Shown one piece after another: positions 25,413 to 63,669 of a DNA stretch of 64,000 nt. Under the pieces are notes generated by a model, which worked only from the letters and a program-made list of their open reading frames with translations, searched no databases and had not been told where the DNA came from. Source of the DNA: Callorhinchus milii (Eukaryota); contig NW_024704742.1 of assembly GCF_018977255.1 (NCBI RefSeq), forward strand, positions 121,770,001-121,834,000, read 5' to 3'. Position numbers and translations under genes: made by a program. The stretch's first letter is position 1, and every line of letters begins with the position of its first letter.

Positions 25413-26774
25413 AGGGTGGTCCTCACTAAATCTCTGGATGTTGCTATTCAAAACCCCTTCCCCACACACCAACTCCTCTGTTCAACACGTGGTGGTCAGA
25501 ATCAAACTCAAAGTGTCACCCTGTCCCTCAAAACATCTATGAATAGAAAAGGTGCTATTAATAGTTTAGATTTTATTCAACAACATCAACAAACATCATT
25601 ATTTATTTATTAGTGTAATCTAATTTGCATGTTTTTTATATAGTGATACATTTACATTTTTATTGCAATAAGTCAATATGGTCAAGTTAATCATAATGAA
25701 ATAGTTCATGTTTTTAGATTATTGTTGCAATGTATTCAGTGAAGGTAGTTAGACTGTTTAGTATGTACGATGGGAGGAGAAACAAAGCTTTAGGTGGATT
25801 ACTGTTTTAATTATTTGAGTAAACTGTGTACAAATATATTTTATTTCTCTGGTTAGTGTCGTCTTTCCTCCCTAATGTCAGCACAAATATGTTTGTTCAT
25901 GATAGGTTCCCGAAATTGGATTTCTGTTAAAAAGTGATTAATATTCCTTACACTTTGAATGCCATTGATCGGGTTTAAATCTTCATTTTATACAGTCAGT
26001 TATTTGCAAGGTACAAGAAACGTCAATGCACATATTGACTTTAGCATATTGGGAGCAATAAAGCCTGGTTCAGTGTGACTGATGGTAGTGTGCTGATTGA
26101 GTCAGGGGAAACTGTACAATGATAAGCTTTTAATTTTTTCTGAATTTGGCTCTAAAGATTGGGTGTAACCAGCTGCAAGAGATTTGGGTGTTTTGACACA
26201 AAACCAAAAAGAAGTTCCATGAAAAGGGAAATATTTATTATTTTAATTTTGAACACAATATGCAAGGAACGCACACATGGATCTGCACTGTAATTGGATA
26301 GTGAGTTGTGTTTAATAGGGGTTTAATTTTTAATTTTTTTAAGTTCTTAAGAGGAGCTTGTTGCCATTTTATTGGCACTGTTAATGAGTTGCTGTTGAAC
26401 TATGCTGATTTCAAAGGAGATGGCAATGACATTATCCAGTGAGGCGAGATGTCACAAGTTAACAGAAATTTTCAACTCCTTCCTAATTTTTTTTGTCACA
26501 AAATGTGGGGCTCTGTGTGGAAATCTCAGCTGTCTCAAAGTGAAAAGTTCCAGTTGTCATGTACTTAATACAATTTTTAAAAAAAAAAATCCTCCATCTA
26601 ATTTTTCAAACTGCTTACTTTTACGATTCTCAGTTGAATACATTTCTGAAACAAGAAGCACAGTTATACGGCACAAAGGCATTAATGCCAAACTCTGTCA
26701 TTCATCGGGGCTCCAAGACATGGGTGGGGGATGGTGGTCAGTTAGGTGGAAATTCATCACCATGCTTAATAGTG

Positions 26775-29700
26775 TCCAAACCAAGCTGAGAATTCCATGC
26801 ATCCGACCTACATATAGAAATTCCAGGGATAGATTGTTGGAATGGAATGCGCACTCTCTCCCTGGAGGGATACATCCTCCTTATCTAATTCCGGAAAGGA
26901 TTAGGCGCAGCTTGGCAAGAGCCAAAGCTTGGGGATCCCAAAGTGTGCGTGAGGGTAACTGCTGGATTCTAACCAGCTAAAACCACGTAGCTTGCCATTG
27001 AAAGCACTGTCTGGCTTCCCTGAACTGTACCATCATCAAGTTGCCAAACAAAATGTAAAAGGCAATTCAAAGGGATCAGAATGAATGAGACACATCAATC
27101 CATATAGTTCACTCTCTAAAAGCATTGTCATTGTCTGACCAGTGTCTCCAAATTCCATCAATTATATGAAACTATTGCTTCACCAAAATATTATAGCAGT
27201 AGGAAAGCCTCCTCAGAAAAGTAGCTTTTATGATTTTGACATTCAGCCATTATTTTGTCTGATAACAATGCCTCTGCACTTCATAATCACAGCTTTGCAC
27301 TTTGGTGACTCAAAGTGGATTCCGTGTTAGCTGCACCACCACATCTTCTTGATCATTTCACAATTTAAGCTGTCTCCAATTGATATTCACACTGTCAGCA
27401 CAAGTGCCAGAGACTGACATGCTTTGCCAGTTTGCCTATAAAGATCACAAGCAATCAGTGCACACACTGAGCCTAGGCCCTTTATTCTCATCAGGCTGTC
27501 CGGACAAACTAATAACAGTATCTAGAGAGCTGTACGCTCAGTGTACTTCCAGTTCCTAATAAACATTCTAAATTTTTGTCAATCTCAGTCAAAAAGTTGA
27601 ACCTATTTTGTGTTTTGAAGCATTTTGAGTAATTAGTTTCGTTAGCTCAATTGTATAGCCAGTGGGAACTGGATTAAGAACAGCAGTACCGGGTAATTAA
27701 GAGTATTTTAAGACTATTCAAACCACACTGAGAGTTCAACACATGTATGCTACCTGCAAATGGAAATTTCCCTGTGGTTTGGAATTGAATACTCACTCTC
27801 TCTCCATGGAAGGACACGCTTGTTCACATAATTCTGAAGAGTATTAGGTACAGATTGGTGAGAGGCAAGGCGCAGGGACTCCAGAGTGTGTGTTGGGCTA
27901 CTTCTGGACTTCACCCATCTAAACACAGATAGCTTGTCATTGAGAGCACTGTCTGGTTAGCTTCTTACTGCTTGTCCGGGTGGGACCACCTTACCTGTTA
28001 AGGCTTCCGCTTGTAGGGTTAACAGGAATAAAACAGGAATAATTCCTGCCCCCATTCTATCCTTGATTCAATGTTCAATAAACAGCATAACTACAATGCT
28101 TGCAGTAAACATAAAACTGTAGCATGTTCGTTGCTTAAGTATACTTATTGCATAGACGAGTGCAAATTCAGAAACACTTAGTGAATTTAGGGAGGTTGAT
28201 GTAATGGTTATATTTTGCATGTTATCCTGTAATTGTTCCCTCTCCAATTTTTAATTTTCCAAACATAAAAAAATGATGTTTGGAAAAACTTGATTTTTTT
28301 TCTCTCACAAATGTTCCATATCCCAAATTTACCAGTGTAGCTGCACTATTTTTCTCCCACACTGCATTTTGCATTATTCTGTTAGTTACTTCATTGTTTT
28401 CCCTGTAAATCTCATCTGCATGAGTTGCATTCATCAGAATAAAGGCGGCAGAGAGAGACAGGGCGATACTGTGTGAATTTGTGTTTCTATTGCCCTCTGA
28501 GCATTAGAAAAATTGGGTCCTTTTTCAGTTTCATTACTTTCTAGCACATTTGAATAGCAGCTGTAAGGCTTTCCTGTCTCAATTCATGAGTCTGCCTATT
28601 GAGCCCTTGTTTCAATCATGGTGAGCAATGTTTCCATAAAGATTGATGAGGCTTTATCTTGGAATTATTGGTAGAGATACCTGTGGCAGGCAATGTTGCT
28701 CATTCCTCAGGGTGGCAAACTGTTGACGACATACCACTCAACATCCTTCTTGCCAGGACCATATCCGCTGGGGAAAATTGTTTAAAGTTAATGAAAGATA
28801 ATGAATCTTCAAACAGCATTCACATTACGCCTCATCTTCTGCAAACTTTACTTTACAGAAGTGGAGTAAAAGCTGAATCATTAAACCAACCCTTTGAAAC
28901 TTTATTACAACAAAATTAATTTTGTTTCATAGAGTGATATGGCATGGGAAGTTGGCTGAATTAGTTTGTACTGATGTTATGGACTGGCCAACAAGAGGAC
29001 ACATCCACCTCATCAAATCCTTTCATAAACACCTCCATCAGGTCCCCTCTCAATTATCTCAACTCTAGAGAGATGAGCTGAATTGGGCTTTTATAAATGA
29101 AAAAAANGTTGAAGAGAGAGAATTCTTGTTTGGTCAGCCAAGTCTCTTCACATGTGTAAACCTATTCCTAATGGAAATTTCTCCATTACCTGGAGGCTTG
29201 CACTCTGCACACTTAATCCTAGAAATTATTAGGTGCAAATTGGCAACAGACAAAGATCGGGGACCCCATAGTGTATGTGGGGCTACTATTTATGTTGAAC
29301 CTGCTTAAACCACAAAGCTTACCTCTCCTCTCAGCTCTACCTTCATGGCTCTGTCCTTGCCTGGTTCTGTTCTTATCTTTCCCATTGTTTCTACTTTGTT
29401 TCCACCTATGGCTTCTCCTCCAGCCCTCACACCGTCACGTATGGTATACCCAGGGGTTGGTCCTCTCCTTTTTAAAATGTACCTGCTCCCACTCGGGGAT
29501 ATATCCACAGGTATGGGGTTAATTCCATATTTATGTGAATGATACTCTATCACTCTGCCTCCACCCTCAACTCCAGGACCATTGCTGTCCTGTCAGATTG
29601 TCTGTCAGACATCAAGTCCTGGATGAGAGCCACTTTCCTACAGTTGAATGTCGACAAGAATGAGGCTTTCTGGCTTGGCACCCATTAGTGCCTCCTCACC

Positions 29701-30840: not shown

Positions 30841-31257
30841 AAGATTGGATTTTATTAAGCTCTTCTTCCTCCGAAATCATCATGCTATCTCTTGAGTTGT
30901 GAAATTAGTTAGCTGCTGGAATATTAAAGATTATGGAAGTGAGCAGGATTATGGGATTAGAATAGCCAGTTTATGTGGAGAAAACCACACTGATGTTGGC
31001 CTTTATTCTGTGTTATACTATTTTAAGATTCTATGAAACTTTAATACAGTTGTGGAAGATAATAAAAGTGTCAAAAATCCAGGTAAAAACCTTTTCTGTC
31101 CTTTGCTTGGAGAATACACCTTTCCAAGTATAGAATGTGCATTTTGCCCTCTAAATATACAGTCAATCCACTTTACAATATATTCCGTGAAGCGATTTGA
31201 GATGTCTCAATGACATGATGAGGCTCTATATCAAATACAAGGATTATTATTATTATA

Positions 31258-33642
31258 CAACAACAACAACAAGATTCCATTTATAAAACGCCTTTCACGT
31301 CAGGAGGACGTCCCAAGGCGCTGCACAGTTGGGTCATGACCCGAGCAGGGGGGAAATGGTCAGGGTGAGGGGAGGGAAGGGAGGGAGCGAGGAGGGGGAA
31401 GAGAGTCGAGAGGGGAGCTGAAGGCACGGTCAAAGAGAAAGGTTTTGAGACCGGCCTTGAAGGAGGAAAGGGAGGAGGCGGCGAAGGCACTGGGGGATGG
31501 AGTTCCAGAGCCTGGGGGCTGAGAGGCTGAAGGCCCGACCACCGATGGTAGGGCGGTTGGGGCGGGGGACGTGGAGCAGACCAGAGCCAGAGGAACGGAG
31601 GGTACGGGCAGGTAGGTAGGGGGATAGTAGGTTGGAGAGGTAGGAGGGAGCAAGGCCGTGAATGGCCTTGTAGGTGAGGATGAGGATCTTGAAATCAATC
31701 CTCTGGGGGATGGGGAGCCAGTGGAGGCGAGCGAGGGTGGGAGTGATGTGGTCCCGAAGCCTGGTGCGGGACAGTACACGAGCTGCAGAGTTCTGAATGA
31801 CCTGCAGCTTGTGGAGGGAGGTGGCGGGAAGGCCGGCGAGGAGAGAGTTCCCATAGTCCAGCCTTGAGGTGACAAAGGCGTGGACCAGGGTTTCAGCAGC
31901 GTGAGGGGTGAGGTAGTGCCGTAGTCTGGCGATGTTCCGGAGGTGATGGAAGGCGGTGCCAGTTGTGGTGCGGATGTGAGGGAGAAAGGACAGCTCAGGG
32001 TCGAACAAAACGCCGAGGTTCCTGACTGGCTTTGAGAGGTGGAGAGTGCAGCCTTGGATGCTGATGGTGTCAGCGCCTGAGGTGCGGAGGCGCTGACGTG
32101 AGCCAATCAGGAGGGCCTCGGTTTTTCGCACGTTGAGCTGAAGAAAGTTGTCTCTCGTCCAGGACTCGATGTCGGACAGGCAGGCTGTCAGGACATCGGT
32201 GGTCGTGGAGTTGAGAGTAGAGGAGGAAAGGTAGAGTTGGGTGTCATCCGCATACATGTGGAAGTTAACTCCATGTCTGCGGATGATGTCACCAAGGGGG
32301 AGCATATAGAGGGTGAAGAGGAGGGGACCGAGGACAGAGCCCTGAGGGACACCACATGAGACATTCCGGGTGTGGAGGAGAAGCCATTCGTTGAGACAAA
32401 GTGAATACGGTGAGAAAGGTACGACCTAAACCATTCAAGGACAGTGCCTTGAAGGTTGAGGTGGGAGGACAAGCGGTGGAGTAGGATAGCGTGGTCGACC
32501 GTATCGAATGCTGCCGATAGGTCGAGGAGGACGAGGAGACAGAGGGAGCCCTGGTCACAGATGGTCAGGATATCATTGGTGACCTTGACCAGGGCAGTTT
32601 CTGTGCTATGGGCAGCACGGAAACCTGACTGAAGGGGTTCAAAAAGAGAATGGGTGGAAAGGAAAGAGCGCAGTTGGGAGGCGACAACTCTTTCCAAGAC
32701 CTTGGAGAGAAAGGGGAGGTTGGAGATGGGCCGGTAGCTTGATAGCTGCGACGCATCAAGGGAGGGTTTTTTCAGGGTGGGCGTGATGATGGCAGTTTTT
32801 AATGGAATGGGGACAGAGCCAGAGGAGAGGGACAGGTTGATGATGTCAGTGATATGTGGGGCAAGAAAGTGGAGCTGGGAGATAAGGAGTGGAGTGGGGA
32901 TGGGGTCAAGGGAGCAGGTGGTTGGTTTTAGGGATAGGATGAGTTCAGTGACAGAGGGTGGGGAAACGGGTACGAAGGTGTGTAGGGGAGGATGGGTAGG
33001 AGTCGGAGTGTGGGAGGGAAGGGGTGGGTGGTGGGTGGAAGTTGGAGGGGAAGTGACCGCGGAGCGGATTCCCTTGATCTTGGATTCAAGGAAATCCAGC
33101 ATCTCCTCGCAGTGAAGGTTGGAGGAGATGACCTGCGCGGGGTGGCGGGGGGGACGGAGGAGTCGGGTTGTGGTGGAAAACAGTAGCCTGGGGTTGTTCT
33201 TCGCCTCCAGGATTATCCTGGAGTAGAAGGACGACTTGGCCGAGGCTAGAGTGGAGCGGTAAATTTTGAGGAGGTCCAGCCAGATTTGTCGGTGGACCGT
33301 TAGGCCAGATTTGACACAGGTGCGTTCAGCAGCCCGCACCTGGCTTTTCAGTGAGCGGAGGTGGGTGGTGTACCAGGGGGAGGAGCGGGAGTAGGAGACA
33401 GTGCGGGAAGTGATGGGGGCAAGAGTATCGAGTGTGGAGGAGAGGGTATTGTGGAGGAGGGAGAGAGGAGAAGAGGGGTCGGTGAGGGTTGAAGGCCAGA
33501 GGGAGAGGAGTTCAGAGGACTCCAAGGCATCGGTTAGGGATTGTGGGGGTAACTTCTTCCAAGGGCGGTAGAAGATGGTGGTGGGTCTGGTGGAGGTGGG
33601 GAGGGGGGTGGAGGAGGTGAAGGAGATGAAGTAGTGGTCAGA
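31258..33642 (-). mobile_element. Young 5'-truncated L2-clade LINE (ORF2: end of APE endonuclease, then reverse transcriptase)
   Basis: Minus-strand reading gives SDH..., [65 protein letters not shown] and LHWLP. 3' UTR ends in (TTG)n. Two frameshifts (~32369 and ~31482); no in-frame stops seen. Confidence 0.95.
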
Positions 33643-36287
33643 TATATATATATATATATATTATATATTATAGAATATCCTTCCACAGGTTTGAAATGGA
33701 TGATTCTTAGATTGTAACTGAGAATGTTTGTGCTGTTCCCTCATTGTCTAGTACTGTTTATTTCTTTTTTTAAATCCTTACCATGAACTGGAAAGATCCC
33801 AACAAGTAGGGTTTTATTAAACACAGGCTGGCTTAGTGGCCCCACCAATAAATCACAAATACAAATATATTTTCACTTATTAAATCTGGTTTAATTTGGT
33901 CCTGAGAGAAATAGGCACAAATTTAATTGGTAGCGGATATGGAGAAGAACATTCTGCTCAGGCTTGAAGCACAATTGTCAGGCAGATTCTGCCCGGTTGC
34001 TCTGACACTAACTCTGCCCATAACAGACGTGTGTTTTATGTCAATTAATAGGGCTATAAAAGGGATTTGTTTCCCACTACACTGAATCCTCCAATAATAA
34101 TAATGTAAAGGGAAATATATAAGAAATTAGGCTGTTTTACTTGCAGTGGAGGAATGTAATTAGTTTGAGCATAATAAAATCCCAAATCAACTTCAGAATT
34201 AATGTAAATTTAACAGGAAAAATGTTGTAGGGAAGCTGGGAGCATTGCTCCACAAAAGCATAGAATATAAAAATGATGGATTTTCTTTTAGGTCTGTAAA
34301 ATTTTAAAAGTTGAAGCTTCTCTTTCATGTCAATCCAGTTCTGATTACAATTGCAGATTAACTGGAAGGTGACCTGCTCTTGTTATCAGTGTTCATTAAT
34401 TCTGTTTTCGAGGCAATGTTACTCCACTGGTATTTCGGAATGGCAGTTCAGTCTCAGAAGATTGAGTTGTAAAACAACTTGGAAGCTTGTATAATATCAG
34501 ATTGGTGATGCCGAATGAGACAGGAGTATCGAAATTCAGCTTCACCGAATATCGGGATCCTTCTGAAGATGAATTCCGAATGAAGGAATTCACAGTCCTC
34601 TACAAAACATAATCTTGGACAGTTGTTGAAGAGGCTTTAAAACCTACCACTTCCTTGGAGAGTTTGTGCTGTTACAGTTACAGTTGTATCAGCTTGAGTC
34701 GTTAGTAGCACTCTTGCCACTGAGTCAGAAAGTTGTGGGTTCAAGCCCACGTTGGGACGATGAAGCAAGGCCAGCGTGAGAGCAATGCCAATGGGTGAGA
34801 GGGAACCAACAACTTACATTTATATAGCGCCCCTCACGCAGGGTAGCACCCCAGAGTTCTTGACCAGAGAAGGAACAAGACCAGCGAGAGAGAGGCCAAG
34901 GCATTGCAAATGCTTGAAGAGCCCGTTGCCATGGTAGCAAGGTACCTTGGTTTGGCAAACTCATAGATTGCCTCACCTCATAAAAAGGTCACCAGCCACC
35001 ACTGTTCAGAAGGGATAGAACCTGCCTAACCAATCTTGTAGCTTTTTTTTGAGGAGGTGACATTTCAAATTGACAGTGTGAAGCTATGTGATGTAATGCA
35101 CCCAGCCAACCATCCCAAAGGCTTTCAATAAAATGTCACAAACTAATGCTAGTGGGCCTCAAGGACTTGAGTTAGCAACCGAATAAAGGTGGGGAAGCAT
35201 AAATATTTTTTTCCAGCTAGGATAAAATGGCAAAAGTATTAAAACTCAGTGAAACCTGGTTAAATTTGAGATGATATCAGGCTGGGAGGAGGAGGGAGTG
35301 AAGAAGGGTGGGGGCGGAAGGTGGGGTTGCTAGAAATTGTGGACTAATGAACAGAATGCATTTAAAAATGTCTCAATTTTGACCTGAGTTCCTTAAAATG
35401 CTAAATTCTGGTTAAATTGGCCAACGTCTCATATTCTATAAAACAGAATTAATTTGTTTCCAAATGTACAGGAGAGCATCACATTAAACCCAAATTTTTA
35501 TTTCTTTCCATTCCTGCACTACATACAGATCACATCTATCAATTCAATTATTTTCCTCCTGTCTTTGCCAGCAGTGTCTTACTTTTGTTGTCAACACGTC
35601 CCAAAACAGCTGTGAAACTACTCAGAACAAAACAGCCTAAAAAAGTCCTCTGAGGCTGGAGTACAGATGGTGTCTCACACAAAGTTTGTACTGCTGAAAG
35701 CAAAGTGATATCACTTCTACAAGTAAAGTGATTTTATACTTCCCGCTCCAAATTGGGTTGGTCGGGAGTTTAGGAAAGTTCTGTCCATGTGCAACCAAGC
35801 ACATGAGCACAACCCCGATATATGGTGTTAGTTTTTCGATAATATAGCAGACTCTTTAATAATAAGAGATTCCAAGATTAATTTGGATTAAAAAATTGAC
35901 CCATCTGATCTCATTCCTCCAGAAGAATGTGGTATTCCCATCACAGCATCAAGTTGCTTTTTAAATGAGTCCAGTGTCCTGGTCTCGATCACCCTTCCTT
36001 CTGAGTAACGACAAACTGCCGGTTAACTATATTGTACTTTATAAGACTTTAGTCAAGATGTAGAAGCCTTGTTTAGATACATCATCATACCAGCAACTTC
36101 CCCATTTGGCAGCTTTGAATTACTAGCTGTGTTTTTAAGGAGAGCGAGGATATTATAAGGTAACAATTCGGTTTAACTTCTCATTCATCGGACAACACCT
36201 CCGACAATGCACTGCATTGGACTATGAACTTACACTCCCAAAATGGAGTTCAAACCCATGACCTTCTGACTCAGGGGTGAGAGTCCT

Positions 36288-40763: not shown

Positions 40764-40888
40764 TAACTGGGAATACCAGTCTGCATGTGTGACTCTGATT
40801 TGGTTGAGTCACCTTTAAAATAGAGACTCGATTTCAAAGGTGACTCAACCAAGTCAGAGTCATGCACACAGACCGGTATTCCCAGTTA
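40764..40888. repeat. Near-perfect 125-bp inverted repeat (MITE-like)
   Basis: ~58-bp arms with few mismatches and a short loop; TA at both ends. Confidence 0.85.
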
Positions 40889-41023: not shown

Positions 41024-42657
41024 CATCATTTGCTACCTTTAACCACTGTACCCTCTTCTCTCAGATTGCTGAACCATTTTCTTTCTATGCACACTGTGGT
41101 CATTTACCGCTTGTGTTTTTGCCGATTGTTATGCTGTGAATTAATCCCCTCACCTATTCATTAAGTGCTTTGATGTGAAAGGTGCAATGTAAATTGTATT
41201 GTATTCCTTTCCTCCAAAGCTTACCGTGCCTCAGACGTCTTGCCTTCTTTGACCTACTTCCCCCCCCTTCCTCAGATATGTTACCACCCCTTCCTTCCTG
41301 GGACTGCAACTCTCTACAATTCCATTAGTTATTATGGGTTGCCATTTTTTTACTTCAAAAGACAATTTTTGCTGGGCCCTCCAGATCCCCATCTCCACCC
41401 ACGCACAAACAAATAAATAAGCAGGGAAACTCTAAACTCCAAGGCCATAAAGAATGCAAATAGTCAAGAACGTTTGGACAGGGTAGAGCTTTTCTTTTTG
41501 GATGTGAGGTGATTGAGAGGTGACCTGTTGGAGGTATTTAAAATTAAGCAAGGATTTTTTAAGTTTAATAGACTATTTCCACTTGCGCGTGGATTCTCTT
41601 ATTAAGCCATAGTATAAAGTAGATCCAATTCTCTGCTTCAATGACCTTCCACAAGACTATTATCCCACAAGTTTATTATCAACCAGTTTGGATGAAGAAG
41701 GCTTTTTGGCCCAATTTGATCTCATCCTTCCAGAATATCAACCCTCACTTTACAGCATCAAGCTGTTTCTTAAGTCATCCCAATGCCCTGGCCTCAACCA
41801 CACTTCCAGACAACCTGTTCTGGTCATTAATTACCACTTTACATTAAAAAATGTTCCATTGGACTTTTACACCTGTTCTTCGATTTGGTGAGAAATAGAC
41901 TGTAGGAAATATGCGCTGATGATCTACCCTTGACCAAAATTGTGTTATCGTCTCCTTGTGGAGTGACTGGCAGTGGTTGAAATAGATCATATTCCATTTC
42001 TGTAGGTATACAATCTCACGAATGTGGATTCGGCTCACCTAATCTCCAAGAGGAAGGTAAAATATATTAATAAACCTAAGAAGGTGATTTTGTTTTCTCC
42101 CAAACTTAGCGTGTGTGACTCTGACTTGGTTGAGTCACCTTTCTCCCAAACTCCCCTCCCCTCACTCTGACCATTTCCCCCCTGCTTGGGTCCTGACCCA
42201 ACTGTCCAGCGCCTTGGGACGTCATGAAAGACGCTCTCTAAATGAAATCTTGTTGTTGTTGTCAAAGAACTTGCACCTTTATACCTCATCTCTGTCTTCC
42301 ATACCAGCTTTGTTAAGTCTTAAGCAATGTAAAATTATTCTGATTTCATGGGTTACTTTCATAATATATTTTAAACGCTAATAAAATGTGCTCTTTATGA
42401 AATGTGAATTTTTTTATTATATTGTTTTACAATAGTCTGTTTTATGATCTTCTAAGTCATATAATCAACAATCATTGTAAACCCCTTAATATTTTATAGG
42501 GATAGGATTAATCTTTTATTATCTGATGATAAGCAGAGTATTAGAAATGCATGTATTAATTGCTTTTTTTATATAAATTTTTCTTTTCTTTTTCCCCATT
42601 GGCATGTGTCTCTCTCTTGCTGGATGCAATTCCAAAGACACTGCTTGCCATCCATTC

Positions 42658-46611: not shown

Positions 46612-47220
46612 ATAATAATGATAATAATAATAATTATTATATTTGATATAGCGCTTTTCAAGTCTTCTAGACGTCTCAAAGCATTTCGCAGAATATACTG
46701 TAAAGTGAATTGACTATATATTGGGAACACTCAGCAGGTCAAGGAGCATCTATGGAGAAAGGAAAGTGAGTCAATGTTTTGGATCCATGCCACTTCGTCA
46801 GAAGTGGGGCATGTTGGCAGGGAGAGGCTTTTAAGCACTAACAGAGAGGGGGGAGGCAGGGCAAGGAAGACAAAGGAGAAAATGGGGTAGAGGACCGAGA
46901 ATGATGGGTTAAAGAGTTGAGATGCTACCTGACTTGCTGAGTGTTCCCAGTGACTTCTGTTTGTGTTTTCAAATTTCTAGCATCTGCAGTATTTTGCATT
47001 TTGACTGTATATTTGTGGGCGTAATGTGGCAGCCAATTGCGCATAGCAGTGTCCCACAAATAGTCATGGATTGAGTGACCAAATTATTGTTATTTTTTTC
47101 TTGAGGGATTATTATCAGGCATGTCGAGTAAGGAAGCTTGCCTACAGTTTTGCCCTGCCGGGTATCGAACCCAGGTCTCTCTTGTAAGGCAAGTGCTCTA
47201 ATTACTGAGCTAAAGGACTC
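46612..47220 (-). mobile_element. Deu-domain SINE split by a Penelope-like insertion
   Basis: Tail at 46612-46722; body and head at 47001-47220. Confidence 0.85.
46723..47000. mobile_element. Short non-autonomous Penelope-like insertion inside a SINE
   Basis: Homologous to 61685-61885 plus an inverted terminal segment; ~13-bp duplication TTGACT(A/G)TATATT at 46710-46722 and 47001-47013. Confidence 0.8.
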
Positions 47221-57138: not shown

Positions 57139-60100
57139 TCAAAGGTTAAAGTCATACCAGAGATCAGGGTATCGGCTGCCCGGCTTGTATTTTGGTTAGG
57201 ACATTGGATATCTAATGGTAGATCTTCAGCATTGTGAAAAATGAATAGAAAAATATTTCCCTTTGAGCTAGCTAATAACAAACAGATGTTAACAGGTATT
57301 TATAACTGAAAGAGTTTAGTGTTATACCTCACTGGAGGCCTAAAATTTTAAGATATTAGAACAAATGAGAAATTAAAATAATAATAATCCTTAAAATTGG
57401 TCTGATGAATCAAAGTGCTTCACAAGATTTTACTGTCAAGTGTAGTGTCTGATTATTTTGCAGGCAAATACTGCAGCCAATTTGTGCACAGGGAAAATGG
57501 TTCCAATTTTGCTAATCTAAATTAATTCCAACATTCAAAAAGGGAGTAAGTGGATATCTTAAGGAATTACTAACCAGTGGTGGAGGAAAAAGCTTAAAAG
57601 GTATTTTATGATACTGTATCAACATTCGTCTGAAGAGACCTGAGGTGTTGAAAAGACTAGTTTCAGAAAAAGTGTGTCATGTTTCACAAATCCAATGGAA
57701 TCTGTTAAGAAGGTAAATCAATCAGCGGATGAGGCATTTCCTGTGGATGCAATCTACTCTACTTGGATTTTTGTAATAGTTAATAAATCCTGCATCTGGC
57801 ACTTTAAGAGGAAATTAGGGCTCATTGAATTAATCGCAATTTAGCCAACTGGATTGAAAACTGATTTAACAGTTGAAACAGGAGGAGAGAGTGGAGTTGA
57901 TTTAATGGCATATTCAATATTCATCACACTAGATGATTGAAGTTTGACCCACTTCACTTTGTGGTGCTAATCATGGGCTCCTTTGGTGACCCAGGGTATT
58001 GGACATCTGGTTTATGGTTTTCAACTGGGAGTCCTGGATAGCAGGATGCCAGCTGTCCTGAATTGATTTGTTTGGTAAAAATCACACTAACCATCAGATC
58101 TGGATTCTAACTCCACATACGTGACTCCACAGATGTCACTGGTGAGGATTGATTCTGGGGATGTGAGGGTGGGGCGAAGGAGGGGATTGGGAGTATTTCC
58201 CTTCCAGCACCCTTGTCTTGGCCAACAATCCCCCAAATAAAATTGGTCATTTACTTTGTGGTGGTTGTGGGACAATGCTACAAAATATACTGTCATTAAC
58301 CTTTATAGTATGTCCTGTGAAGCGCTTTGAGACATCCTCGACATGTGGAAGATACTAAATGTAAGGTTTGCTATTATTATTTGATGTAATAAATATTGAA
58401 TTGACCACAAAATCCCTTCGTGACCTAGCACCTCCCTATCTTTCTGACCTCCTTTATCCCCACTTCACTACCCATTGCCTCTGTTATGGCCTCCTGCTTG
58501 TCCCTCATCCCCTCCACTCCACTATTAGCAGCAACGCTTTTAGTCACTATGCCCCGAAGCTTTGGAATAGAGACTGAAAGCCTGACAGACTTGAAATAAA
58601 AATTGACAGTCATAATAATTTGACACCAATTGCCTGTGAAATGCTTTGAGATATTTCAAAATGATAGGGTTTTTTATCAAATGCAAGGATTATTATTTCT
58701 TGTTAATATAAATAGTTTTGATTGGTGGAGAACAAGAGTGCAATATCAATGAGCCTGAAATGAGACAGAGGATTCCATATATTTTTTTTACCTCCTACAC
58801 AACAGTTGGAATAAAATACCATCCCAAATACTTAATGTTCATGTTGATTGGTTTATTTACAGTAGATCTACAGAGCATCGACTTAAGTGGATAATTCAAG
58901 GTTATGAGAAAAAGAACAGACATAAATTGATCAAGTGCTGTGTGAAACACAATTTTTCCTGTTCTGGGAGCAAGAAAGTGTCAAATATGCAATGCTATAG
59001 GGGGAATAGCATGGTTTGTAATGTCAGATTGATATCCTAGATTTTGTTCAATTACCTTAGGGGGTCATGGAGAAATTTCACATAGTTGTATGTTGGAAAT
59101 ATTATGTCTTAGCAGTCACCTCCCGCAGGAGGTAAAATAAATTGAATGGAATCCATGATAGTACAAATTGTACATGGTCTTTTGAGGGAACAAGCTCAAT
59201 GCACTGAATGGCTTTATCTCATTAGATTGTTTTAATGTTGTTTTACACTTTATTAAAGTGCACTGATAGATGTATTTCATGATATCTTATGCTCTGGGAG
59301 ATTGCAATAACTGCATTTGTGACAAAGCAAGAATACCAGTAACAGACTGTACAGAAGAATTAAACATACAGAATGAATCAAGCCATGATGTTCATATGTC
59401 CTCTAAACTGTAAAGTGGACCCTTGCTTTTTTCACTAATCATGATATTTTGAGTCAAATGTTTGAGTATTTGGCTGACAGGCTGAAAAAGATACCTGTCA
59501 GCCTGGCTCAGTTGGTAGCACTCTTCCCTCTGGTTAAGAAGGTTGTGGGTTCAACACCCCCCCACGCATTCACACTTGAAACTCACAGTCTAAGCTGGTA
59601 CTCCAGTGCAGTGCTAGGGGGTGAGCTGCATTATTGAAGGCGCCATCCTTTAGATGATTGCCAGTTCAGATGGACATTAAAAGATCCTGTGACACTGTTC
59701 GAAAAGAAAAGGGAGTTTCTCCTGGTGTCCTGGTCAACAATTCTGCCAAATAAAATTAGATACCAGGAGAAACTCCCTTTTCTTTTTGTACAGTGCCACA
59801 TGATCTTAAACATCTACCTGTACAGGCAGGTGGAACTTTGGTTTAATGTCTCATCCGGAAGGCGCTCCAACAATGCAGCTCTCTCCAGCATTATTTTGGA
59901 GTGTCAGCTGATATTGTAAGTTCCAAGTCCCAAAGTTGGCAATCTTCTTACCCAGAAGCAAGAGTGCATTTCATATTTTTGTTACCTGTAAACTGTTCCT
60001 CTGTATTTAGAGTTTTTGTTTGTTCATACTGTCTCTACCCCATCAAAGGTATCTCTCACCCCACAGCTGTTTTTAATGTTCTGATAAATGGTCATTCCCA

Positions 60101-61669
60101 AGATGTTAACCTTTCATTCTCCATCAGACTCTGTTTTTCCCATTTCCAAGTTCGAGCATCAAAGCTCTTCTGTGCATAAGGGACCCATCAGCCCCTGTTG
60201 TCTGATGTTTTTAAATTAGTTTTTTTTAATGATTCAACTTTCCAGATTATCTGCACTATTATTTTTCTTCTCCAGTTTTCTCCCCTTGTTTCCTCTTCTG
60301 AAGGTGTTTGAATTCTTTTTCTTGCTACTGAGGAATGGTTCATGGCAATCAGGTGCCCTCTTGTACCTGATGGGGACAAAAAGCCCATCATGTGCGAGCC
60401 TTGATGGTGAATGTTGACAGGTTATTTAACTGGTTGAAATCACAGACGAGTCTATTTCTTTCCAGAACCAACATATCCACATATGCAAAGTGATCTGCAA
60501 TGGCTAGTTTGCCCCTACTTAACATTGAGCGTTGAGATCAAGTGTGATACTTCAAATGTTCCTCTGCCAGAGATGGGACAACGTAGCACAGACCAGGATT
60601 TAATTGCTTTTATGGTTTCAATATAAATCCAGGTGTGCTGCAGGCATTTTAAAAACATTTTCAAAGTTTAAAACGTTTCTCTTAAAAGTTCTTGGAAAAC
60701 TATTCTATTTGTTCCAATGCTATTAATAAATAATAACCACAAGTGTTTGGCATTAGGTGGAGATACTCTGGATGTTCTTAATTGCACCAACACAGACCAA
60801 TCCTCAACCCTTTATCAAAAGCATTTTGGAGCAGATAAGTATAAATCAAATAATTGCAGTAGCAAAAAAATAAGGGGCATCAATGTGACCCTTTGACATT
60901 TATTTTAGTCCTGTCAGCTTGACATTGAAACAGCTATAGGATTGCAATATGGGTGAAGTAATGGTGTCTCAATCTCAGGCAAGGGGCAGGGAATGCCACA
61001 AGAGCTCTTCATTTTCATCAAAGGTCTCTTGCTCAATTATGTTGACAGACATAGGACTCCAGAGTATCCACGAATGTATTATTCAATGGGTCGTGCGAGA
61101 CATTTATTTCCCTGACCCTTTATGTAATATGTAGCATTTGAACTGTTTTATTAATGCTTCTTTTCTAGATAAACATACAAGGGTTGAAAATGTGGTATTT
61201 GCAACAGAGAATTTGTAAATATTGAATCCTGCTAGGAAACGTCACATCACAAACACCTACAGGAACACTGTTTTAACCCAATCCATTTCCAGGGACTCTT
61301 GTTGATTATAATCTATAATAATAATCCTTGCATTTGATGTAGCGCCTTGTCACATCATCGATGTCTCAAAAGGCTTCACAGGATATACTCTAAAGTAGAT
61401 GGACTGTATTTTGTGGGCAAAACACAGCAGCCACTGATGATTGGCAATGCCCCATCAACAGCCATGGAATGAGTGACCAATTTTTGTTGGAGGATTTGTT
61501 GGTTAGGACACCGAGAGAAACTCCCTCTCCCTTCCCTGCTCGAATAGTGCCGTGGGACCTTTAACATCCAGCTGAATTGGAAGAGGGGACCTTGATTTAA
61601 TGTTGCATCCAACATAATCTACTTATTATTTCTCCACTCTTTTGTTGTAAATAACAATATGCATATAAC

Positions 61670-62160
61670 TCAAACAGAAGTCGCTGGGACACTCAGCAGG
61701 TCAGGCATTAGGTCAGGCATCTATTGAGAAAGGAAAGTGAGTCAACGTTTCAGGTCCACGATCCTTTGTCAGAACTGGGGCATGTTGGGAGGGAGAGGGT
61801 TTTAAGGGCTAACAGAGAGGGGGGAGGCAGGATAAGGAAGACAATGGAGAAAATAGGGTAGAGGACAGGGGATGATGAGTTAAAGAGGTGTTAATGATGC
61901 AAAACAAAGATGGAGGCGGGGAAATTGCAACAATGCAAAACAAAAAGGGGTGGAATTTGGAACAAAATAGGCAAACCAGAGAGAGAAGAGGTATGTCTGG
62001 GATCCAGATGATGTGGTAATGGTCATAGGAGAGGGGGAAGGTGAGCTGTTATGGTCTGAAATTGTTGAACTCAATATTGAAGCCAGAGGGCTGAAATGTC
62101 CCAAGCAGATAAATGAGGTGCTGATCTACAAGCTTGCGCTGTGGCTCATTGGAACTTGTT
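61670..62160 (-). mobile_element. Penelope-like element 3' end: GIY-YIG ORF C-terminus and pseudo-LTR
   Basis: 62159-62049 on the minus strand reads TSSNEPQRKLVDQHLIYLLGTFQPSGFNIEFNNFRP*, resembling the PLE endonuclease C-terminal motif (R.L.E..LI..LGT..P.G.N). It is followed by a pyrimidine-rich UTR and a hammerhead-like motif. Confidence 0.8.
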
Positions 62161-62199
62161 CTCCATCCACGGTCTCCTATGCTGTTCCACAATGGTGGA

Positions 62200-62486
62200 G
62201 CTCAAGGCCGAGCTAGGGGGAGGGAGTAGGCTTAGACCGTATGCGCGGTTGAAAAGGAAGGGCTTCAGGTGCGACCTAAAAATGGGAAAGGAGGTGGGGA
62301 GGCAAAGGAGTTGAGGGAGAGAGTTCCAAAGTTTTAGGATACAGTGGCTGAAGGCATGGCTGCCGATGGTGGAGCAGAGGATTTGGGCTATGCTGAGGAA
62401 GCTGGACCCAGTAGAGCGGAGGTATCGGGTATTGCTATGGGGCGAGAGAAGCTTAGAGAGATAGGGAAGTGCCAAGGAATGGAGGG
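62200..62486 (-). mobile_element. L2 ORF2 C-terminal fragment lying between Penelope-like arms
   Basis: LHSLALPYLSKLL..LRS..IGSHAFS..KLWNSLP..FRSHLKPFLF. Confidence 0.85.
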
Positions 62487-62727
62487 GACACACCTTTTTT
62501 CTCTCTGGTCAGCCTATTTTGTTGCAAATTTCCCCCCCACCCATTTTGTTTTGCACTATTAACACTACTATTCCCCTGTTGCGTTGCAATCCCCCTTTGT
62601 TTTGCATCATTAACACCTTTTTAACCCATCATCCCCTGTCCTCTACCCCATTTTCTCCCTTGTCTTCCTTGTCCTGCCTCCCCCTTCTCTGTTAGCCCTT
62701 AAAAGCCTTTCCCTGCCAACATACACC

Positions 62728-62764
62728 AGTTCTGACGAAGGGTCGTGGACCCAAAATATTGACT
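62728..62764 (+). ncRNA. Degenerate minimal type I hammerhead ribozyme motif (other copies at 61740-61776 - and 46769-46805 -)
   Basis: Three-copy consensus AGTT-CTGACGA-A-GGGTC-GTG-GACCC-GAAA-CG-TT-GACT; each copy has core substitutions. Confidence 0.7.
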
Positions 62765-62826
62765 CACTTTCCTTTCTCCATAGATGCTGCCTGACCTGCT
62801 GAGTCTTTCCAGTGATTTCTGTTTTT

Positions 62827-63026
62827 CAGGCCGGTCTCACGGTCTCTTTGACCGTGCCTTCAACTCCCCTCTTGACTCTCTACCCCCTCCTTGCTCCCTC
62901 CCTTCCCTCTCCTCACCCTGACCATTTCCCCCCTGCTCGAGTCCTGACCCAACTGTCCAGCGCCTTGGGACATCCTCTTGACGTGAAAGGCGCTCTATAA
63001 ATGGAATCTTGTTGTCGTTGTTGTTG
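62827..63026 (+). mobile_element. Short L2 3' end inserted into a Penelope-like repeat
   Basis: Highly similar to the reverse complement of 31258-31457; (TTG)n tail; flanked by TGTTTTT on both sides. Confidence 0.9.
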
Positions 63027-63669
63027 TTTTTGTTTCAGATTTCCAGCATCTGCAATATTTTGCATTTTGTTTACGAATATAACCGATCCCCTTCTCCTCC
63101 TCATTCATCACTGGGTATCTTGGAGTTATCCTGTCCTACAGATATTCAGTCAAAGCTTGGATGAGTTGCTGCTATTGTAGTTGCCGAGATCACAGTAGAT
63201 GTACTGATTTGACCTGCTCCTTGAAAGTAAAATCTGTTGTCTACTCGATAGATTGATGTGCGTCCCACGCTCTGTCAGCCAGCAATGAGATCTCACCTGA
63301 ATTTACACTTTAATTTTTCCCAGCACTTGTAAAATTACACTCAGTTTCTGACTGCTGACCTTTCAACATCCGAGATATTACAAGTCTATAAATTTTATAC
63401 TGGGGGAATACAGACAGACCTCCTACTGCTTCCAATGGGAAAACCGCCCCCATTTCAATTGCTTCTCAAACTTAATTGAGGGAAACTTTTGAAATAGCAG
63501 CACACAACCGTAGAAATCTACCGCTCAGAAAAAGGTCACTTGGCCCATCCTGTCTGGGTCAGCTCTTTTAAGAGAAATATGTTATGTATTAGTTATTACC
63601 GGTAATAATTATCATATCACACACTGCATATTTTCCTCTAATATTGCTTATTCATAGAGTCAAGCAACA

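Follow-up and report, generated by a model that had tools for sequence, protein, structure and literature searches.

Extent and layout of the insertion

Within the window (the whole 64,000-nucleotide stretch of Callorhinchus milii DNA analysed here), positions 61670-63071 very probably represent a single insertion of an endonuclease-bearing Penelope-like element (PLE), which is old and now dead. This segment is composed of two inverted PLE 3' ends, the end of an ORF and two L2-type pieces, and on the minus strand it is ordered as inverted pseudo-LTR, L2-type piece, ORF end and pseudo-LTR. By its pseudo-LTR, tail, target-site duplication (TSD) and ORF end, the insertion belongs to the endonuclease-bearing PLEs. 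The original prediction had described inverted arms around an ORF end and an L2 fragment, and this arrangement stands, except that there are two L2-type pieces, the second of which interrupts the right arm. That a single TSD encloses the entire segment, and that only one end bears a tail, are points beyond that prediction.

The left copy of the PLE 3' UTR, or pseudo-LTR, lies on the minus strand at 61670-62048, where it follows the ORF stop and ends before the terminal tail. Its inverted copy occupies 62487-63071 on the plus strand and, as judged from alignment to the left arm, is more 5'-truncated; it runs from 62487 to 62826, where it is broken, and resumes at 63025 with a terminal tail (63025-63071, 89% identical over 46 nt to 46958-47003) that is absent from the left arm. 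Alignment of 61672-61997 with 62824-62487 reversed (80.4% over 347 columns, E 1e-87) bore out the proposed inverted repeat with arms of ~330 bp, giving 279 matches in 319 ungapped columns and a best ungapped core of 198 nt at 90%. The left copy carries a private 9-bp duplication near 61700-61720, with nine letters absent at 61708 in contigs from all four sequencing runs, and contigs of run X5 extend past 61672.

The outer ends of the segment are flanked by an AT-rich 12-bp TSD (61658-61669 and 63072-63083), the two copies of which are identical at 10 of 12 positions. Random flank pairs matched this well 20 times in 5000 (about 0.4%), and with one real flank kept fixed, 10 and 3 times in 5000. 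The two mismatches count against a single event and would suit two independent PLE insertions in opposite orientation, flanking an older L2 fragment and with an apparent TSD that arose by chance. In addition, identity between the arms (88.8%) is much the same as that between the right arm and a third copy in the window (88.3%), no derived change shared by the arms was seen among the matches listed (40 of 300 rows), and PLEs tend to insert close to other copies (PMC6765202). Two insertions are nevertheless unlikely, given the chance of only about 0.1-0.4% for a 10/12 match placed exactly at both outer ends, the inner junctions, which hold no copy of either outer flank in the sequences compared, and the combination of a tailed and a tail-less arm, which recurs at 46723-47000; derived changes in common are in any case not expected of two young copies from a single master.

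This last unit is a second, independent insertion. It consists of a tail-less pseudo-LTR piece on the minus strand (46723-46919, 88% identical over 198 nt to the right arm) and, as revealed by self-alignment, an inverted partner on the plus strand (46920-47000), which comprises the last 81 nt with the tail and lacks the hammerhead. The unit lies inside a tRNA-headed SINE and is flanked by a 13-bp TSD (46710-46722 and 47001-47013, 12 of 13 identical). Both loci share the same plan, in which a tail-less piece on one strand is joined to a tailed piece on the other, the tail is one-sided, and the TSD, of 12 and 13 bp, respectively, lies outside. A profile of the three motif-region copies detected no further copy in the window except the inverted stub at 46920.

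Several other repeats were observed in the window. The Rfam list includes 15 tRNA-like heads, 13 of them above the gathering score. They belong to a single abundant SINE family, about 330 nt in length, of which the window contains up to about 30 partial copies. A fold-back at 59681-59807, with 49-nt arms at 90%, is a SINE-related segment that recurs many times. The 125-nt fold-back at 40764-40888, whose arms are 86% complementary, has a 27-31-nt match at 42112-42142 and resembles a small non-autonomous DNA transposon; its weak sub-threshold Rfam miRNA matches are due to the hairpin. Self-comparison also gave a two-copy 249-nt repeat (26766-27014 and 27708-27956), which is diverged, since a strict short-word re-check returned the self match only.

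L2-type pieces and the ORF end

The LINE pieces at 62209-62486 and 62827-63024, together with the LINE at 31257-33660, are taken here to be of L2 type. The last of these is a long minus-strand LINE with a 490-codon open stretch (32191-33660) that matches RVT_1 (E 1.6e-15), and its 3' end shares 90% identity with the insert at 62827-63024. This insert is a later L2-type 3' end of 198 nt on the plus strand with a (TTG)n tail. It shows 182 matches in 202 columns to 31257-31458 (minus strand), and a 7-bp TSD (62820-62826 and 63025-63031) bounds it within the right arm. In all four runs, contigs that continue past 62826 read directly into the tail sequence that lies beyond the insert, from 63025.

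The middle piece (62209-62486, minus strand) comprises the end of an RT ORF and the start of a 3' UTR (tblastn E 4e-10 to 31427-31642), and adjoins 48 unassigned nucleotides (62161-62208) with no window match beyond 10-11-mers. Runs X1 and X5 each contain one contig across the PLE/L2 junction; an assembly artefact was rejected, as these contigs differ by 1 and 0 and the runs come from two studies (X1 may be the assembly source). It is possible, if tentative, that the PLE machinery carried foreign DNA here, in which case the left cDNA would have run into 326 nt of L2-derived sequence, by 5' transduction from a donor within an L2 3' UTR or by a template switch to an L2 RNA, while the second strand primed an inverted tailed copy. 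In line with this, the middle piece shares its strand with the ORF stub, has no 3' tail and yielded no TSD. A later L2 insertion followed by a deletion may instead account for this piece. Depth over it is 24-28, compared with 14.6 in the flank (run X1), and this proximity to the single-copy flank argues against a large chimeric family. The literature on PLE inversion and transduction consisted, among the matches listed, of work on human LINE-1 or general reviews, which is too thin to call PLE transduction unreported. For the L2-type peptide, ESM Atlas matched three unnamed eukaryotic clusters at 0.93, which were set aside for their low recognition score.

On sequence grounds, the predicted peptide of 62049-62159 (minus strand) is the C-terminus of a PLE ORF, with PLE similarity from about 62157. 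A GIY-YIG-like ORF end had been proposed at this position. An ORF C-terminus is indeed present, but it comprises only the last 36 codons and the stop. These codons encode the final C-terminal part of the GIY-YIG domain, past its GIY and YIG motifs; the RT and GIY-YIG motifs are absent from this copy because of truncation. A comparison with PLE proteins matched the peptide to the C-terminus of cartilaginous-fish RT/GIY-YIG proteins (56% over 32 aa). A HMMER scan with the peptide retrieved two proteins at E ≤ 0.001 in 1.84 billion representatives, and a three-sequence profile matched 16 of 67 candidates (two of the 16 being profile members), 15 of them from cartilaginous fishes; 14 are labelled as rays, skates or Callorhinchus, one is from whale shark and the remaining one is unlabelled. 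This distribution points to a cartilaginous fish as the very probable host. The peptide aligns to the last 32 residues of its relatives at 50-59% (E 3e-12 to P0005). Word-indexed protein searches with the 50-residue frame that holds the peptide, and with P0003, gave no match; the profile search alone worked.

Pfam has no family for the window peptide or the L2-type peptide, while its GIY-YIG family was matched by five of the seven relatives scanned (E 5e-4 to 5e-3, all below the curated cut-off). In the longer, uncharacterised relatives, an RT catalytic motif is accompanied by a CX4CX2C linker, and cysteines separate the two nuclease motifs; the linker is found in P0008, P0010 and P0015, which are 44-56% identical to the window peptide over 27-32 shared residues. 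In PMC8557442, a CX2-5CxxC linker is assigned to Neptune and Nematis and is absent from Penelope/Poseidon, so the relatives would be Neptune- or Nematis-like by linker, a reading taken from the relatives' proteins. As a separate observation, the PLE C-terminal peptide occurs in host isoforms of rays, skates and Callorhinchus (P0004-P0007, P0012, P0013 and P0016-P0018). Many peptide matches are host gene models with an exonised piece, exonisation or mis-annotation being frequent, and at the end of the Callorhinchus PCBP3 model, 13 of 17 residues agree with the window peptide.

Hammerhead motifs and their decay

Candidate minimal type I hammerheads are located in the left arm (61740-61776, minus strand), in the right arm (62728-62764, plus strand) and in the third copy (46769-46805, minus strand). 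These are the three positions at which a consensus motif had been predicted, but no copy is exact, with 3 differences in 37 for the arms and 7 in 37 for the third copy. In the left motif, G8 is changed to A and C11.1 to U, there is one change in stem II, and the predicted scissile site is after 61744. The right motif has perfect stems I and II, a change of G12 to A and a change of the 15.2/16.2 pair from CG to UA, with a predicted scissile site after 62760. In the third copy, both G12 and G16.2 have become A, and stems I and II are damaged. Within the palindrome AACGUU reported as stem III, the stem proper is limited to the four nucleotides A15.1-C-G-U16.1, since the outer A and U are the core bases A14 and U17.

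The cores CUGANGA and GAAANNUH are intact in none of the three copies, which are therefore relics and not working minimal hammerheads. G12 is the general base of the hammerhead. Judging from the bases present, neither arm motif should cut now, as the left lacks G8 and the right lacks G12, and the third copy is without G12 and the palindrome. Each copy is thus missing a catalytic core base, in agreement with the expectation that these copies are probably inactive.

The core losses that had been named (CUGACAA, AAAAUA and AAAACA) were all present, and all fall in columns that read CG, TG, CA or TA across the copies. There are four inferred CpGs in 197 shared columns, all within the motif, and three of them touch core or helix III bases. 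Changes affect 8 of 24 CpG positions versus 29 of 567 elsewhere in the three copies, a contrast that is inflated because these three copies also served to define the CpG columns. A comparison of the window with other copies in run X1 gave A>G at 31 and T>C at 40 places, versus 17 each for G>A and C>T; this tally pools all repeats of the stretch, and its lean toward A>G and T>C is as expected if the window copies lost C and G. The claim that the ancestral motif was intact holds in part: a CpG-aware reconstruction restores the cores, but the simple majority sequence of the three copies does not satisfy the descriptor, since only one copy retains G12 and only one retains G16.2. We therefore infer an intact ancestral motif as a reconstruction from three copies, two of which derive from one event.

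Descriptor searches gave a mixed result. The published min-HHR descriptor (Fig. S7 of PMC4209133) had 0 exact matches in the window, and the 26 matches of an Rfam scan up to E 5 include no hammerhead. A simple core pattern was rejected as uninformative, with three window matches, none of them in the repeat, and three reached in 14 of 100 shuffles. When one core change was allowed and the stems were kept perfect, the window gave two matches, which are both arms, versus one in 12 dinucleotide shuffles. The looser test with one core change and one mispair says little, because the shuffles give 10 matches in 12. For a helix I of 3-7 bp and a helix II of 3-7 bp with a 3-10-nt loop, the right arm has perfect helices of 4 and 5 bp, the left arm passes in a shifted 3-bp register and the third copy fails. 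The extra A after A9 and G10.1 are found in all three copies, while C11.1 and the palindrome at 15.2-16.2 are each found in two of three. The CG to UA change in the right arm keeps the palindrome, but with three copies only it may be a double decay. At 61762, the one motif position among the rows listed, the letter of other copies, which accounts for 88-95% of depth in all four runs, restores the left stem II pair. Once CpG decay is allowed, a fit to the published metazoan minimal hammerhead in every structural feature is supported at the level of sequence.

Energy calculations, for their part, give the ribozyme reading no support. The predicted folding energies of the 49-mers yielded z-scores against shuffles of 0.16 (right arm), 1.48 and -1.64 (the last for a different hairpin), none of which is significant; the hammerhead is the lowest-energy fold of the right-arm 49-mer, and two of the three copies fold otherwise. 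In a 100-nt context, a competing hairpin is preferred in both arms. The best fold of the reconstructed monomer is at -10.8 versus -8.2 kcal/mol for the hammerhead, and that of the reconstructed dimer at -28.3 versus -14.5 kcal/mol for the double hammerhead, which is possible but not lowest. In the computed whole-unit fold of either strand, the sense motif has 34 of its 37 bases paired to the other arm, and in a read-through RNA the motif would be buried in a predicted 290-bp hairpin. As the arms lie on opposite strands, with one sense motif per transcript, there is no tandem dimer between them.

We consider it barely conceivable that the motif is a chance look-alike of a hammerhead in a PLE 3' UTR. 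The lack of any exact descriptor match, Rfam match or folding signal would agree with a look-alike, as would the 10 matches in 12 shuffles, but strict stems reduce this background to one match in 12 shuffles, the motif sits where PLE hammerheads are expected, and all unselected features of the published consensus are present. We give equally little credence to a locus that is functional today, either as an active ribozyme or as a co-opted long hairpin acting on a host transcript. The predicted duplex of the read-through RNA is long enough to raise this idea (of 326 left-arm bases, 287 on one strand and 292 on the other pair with the right arm), but both cores are broken, decay of the arms has been about as fast as that of the third copy, one arm carries a LINE insertion, and no host exon was recognised in the 128 of 205 open stretches of at least 55 codons scanned in the window, where short exons would escape. 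A dead insertion with decayed hammerheads is the reading retained below.

The family, published systems and proposed mode of insertion

Contigs matching the 1.8-kb stretch numbered 31,205, 5,411, 45,916 and 37,709 in the four runs, with all its repeats pooled, and depth was highest or second-highest over the pseudo-LTR end in each. The family is very abundant in the runs of three organisms. No contig spanning the whole stretch was present among the matches listed, and contigs of a putative RNA run cover the locus but are uninformative on expression. No copies were found in viral contigs, phage records or prokaryote genomes. Two metagenome matches were rejected as chance, being near-identical stretches between bacterial-type genes without hammerhead stems. 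At 61870 and 62634, both arms carry the majority letter of organism A, and organisms B and C mostly have the other letter, which hints at lineage-specific subfamilies and activity after the split.

A ribozyme-bearing PLE family, as originally predicted, is supported by the peptide matches, the motif structure and the abundance in four runs. A non-autonomous hammerhead element, either a non-LTR retrozyme or SINE-like, would be a very unlikely substitute for a PLE end. Depth is 539,266 over the motif-bearing end versus 6,594 over the ORF end (run X1; a crude measure), so that most copies would be short, and a preprint describes animal retrozymes that are likewise hammerhead-bearing repeats derived from PLEs and present in one chondrichthyan (bioRxiv 10.64898/2026.07.22.740005). 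However, the retrozymes in that text are tandem arrays, which it requires to have at least two consecutive complete motifs, whereas the window copies are inverted and dispersed and none is complete. The depth gradient is explained by 5' truncation, and continuity of the repeat with the PLE ORF end largely excludes a retrozyme.

The PLE motifs can be compared with the min-HHRs of PMC4209133, which describes type I motifs with a 4-bp helix I, a 5-bp helix II, an extra base after A9, G10.1-C11.1 and a loopless palindromic helix III, located 3' of the ORF in mostly truncated, dispersed copies, all as in the window. Opposite-strand pairs are about 100-700 bp apart in that paper; the window pair differs in being about 950 bp apart, in a 5' flank that is not U-rich and in the core losses of all three copies. 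The paper also reports that single minimal motifs did not cleave and that dimers cleaved at a low level. The 56 examples in Fig. S3 of PMC4209133 include fish, lamprey, coelacanth, frog and reptile and no cartilaginous fish, and about 15 of them (counted by eye) have a C-G-U-U ending.

The insertion units are comparable to those of endonuclease-bearing PLEs in PMC8557442, where an inverted 5'-truncated copy lies beside the insertion and a 30-40 bp tail is often at one end only. An inverted partner, a one-end tail, a variable TSD and heavy 5' truncation are common to both; unlike those units, the window tail reaches about 45 nt past the end of the left arm, and the junction holds 326 nt of non-PLE DNA. 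For PAc, a Poseidon element of Anolis carolinensis, PMC11167929 describes an AT-rich target, cutting and extension of both strands, and two RT start sites that bound the tail. Its hammerhead lies in the pseudo-LTR, is abolished in cleavage by a G8 or C3 change, is protein-assisted and is dispensable for insertion in vitro. The AT-rich target and single tailed arm of the window fit PAc priming, whereas the linker of the relatives is that of another clade than Poseidon. The tail at 63025-63071 agrees with the one-sided tail of 30-40 bp in PMC8557442 and PMC11167929. PLEs are present in all vertebrates studied, according to PMC4350176. Published work already covers this type of element, its ribozyme and the inverted layout with one tail, the kind having been described in 2014; our literature search found no publication joining the hammerhead ribozyme with Callorhinchus.

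In an active family member, the RNA would have had a minimal type I hammerhead some 270 nt downstream of the ORF stop. By analogy with published PLEs, cleavage would trim the transcript and would need either a second copy on the same strand, with helix III formed from two ACGU palindromes, or the element's protein. The GIY-YIG nuclease would have cut AT-rich DNA with a 12-nt stagger, as reflected in the observed TSD, and each exposed end may then have primed RT at either of two start sites, separated by some 45 nt. The expected product is two inverted, 5'-truncated 3' ends with one tail, a layout observed at two loci, for which the two-primer route is suggested by PMC11167929. In the weakest step, the left cDNA might have passed the ORF end into L2-type sequence, most simply either because a truncated PLE within an L2 3' UTR served as the template or through a template switch. 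Afterwards, a second L2-type 3' end entered the right arm, where its TSD is observed, and CpG decay took G8 from one motif and G12 from the other, the losses observed today.

A single locus is of little weight by itself. It extends the range of PLE minimal hammerheads to cartilaginous fishes, for which the 2026 preprint has already described hammerhead-bearing repeats from one chondrichthyan, and both window loci display the one-sided tail expected of two-site, two-strand priming. As the only inferred CpGs in about 200 nt of the repeat all lie within the ribozyme, host methylation would quickly disable genomic copies, and this decay would also conceal them from exact descriptors and Rfam. The route by which the middle L2 piece came to lie between the arms is of some interest: if foreign DNA was carried, the locus would preserve a record of two-ended priming that brought cargo along, and a family so abundant might have reshuffled both host and LINE sequence across the genomes of cartilaginous fishes.
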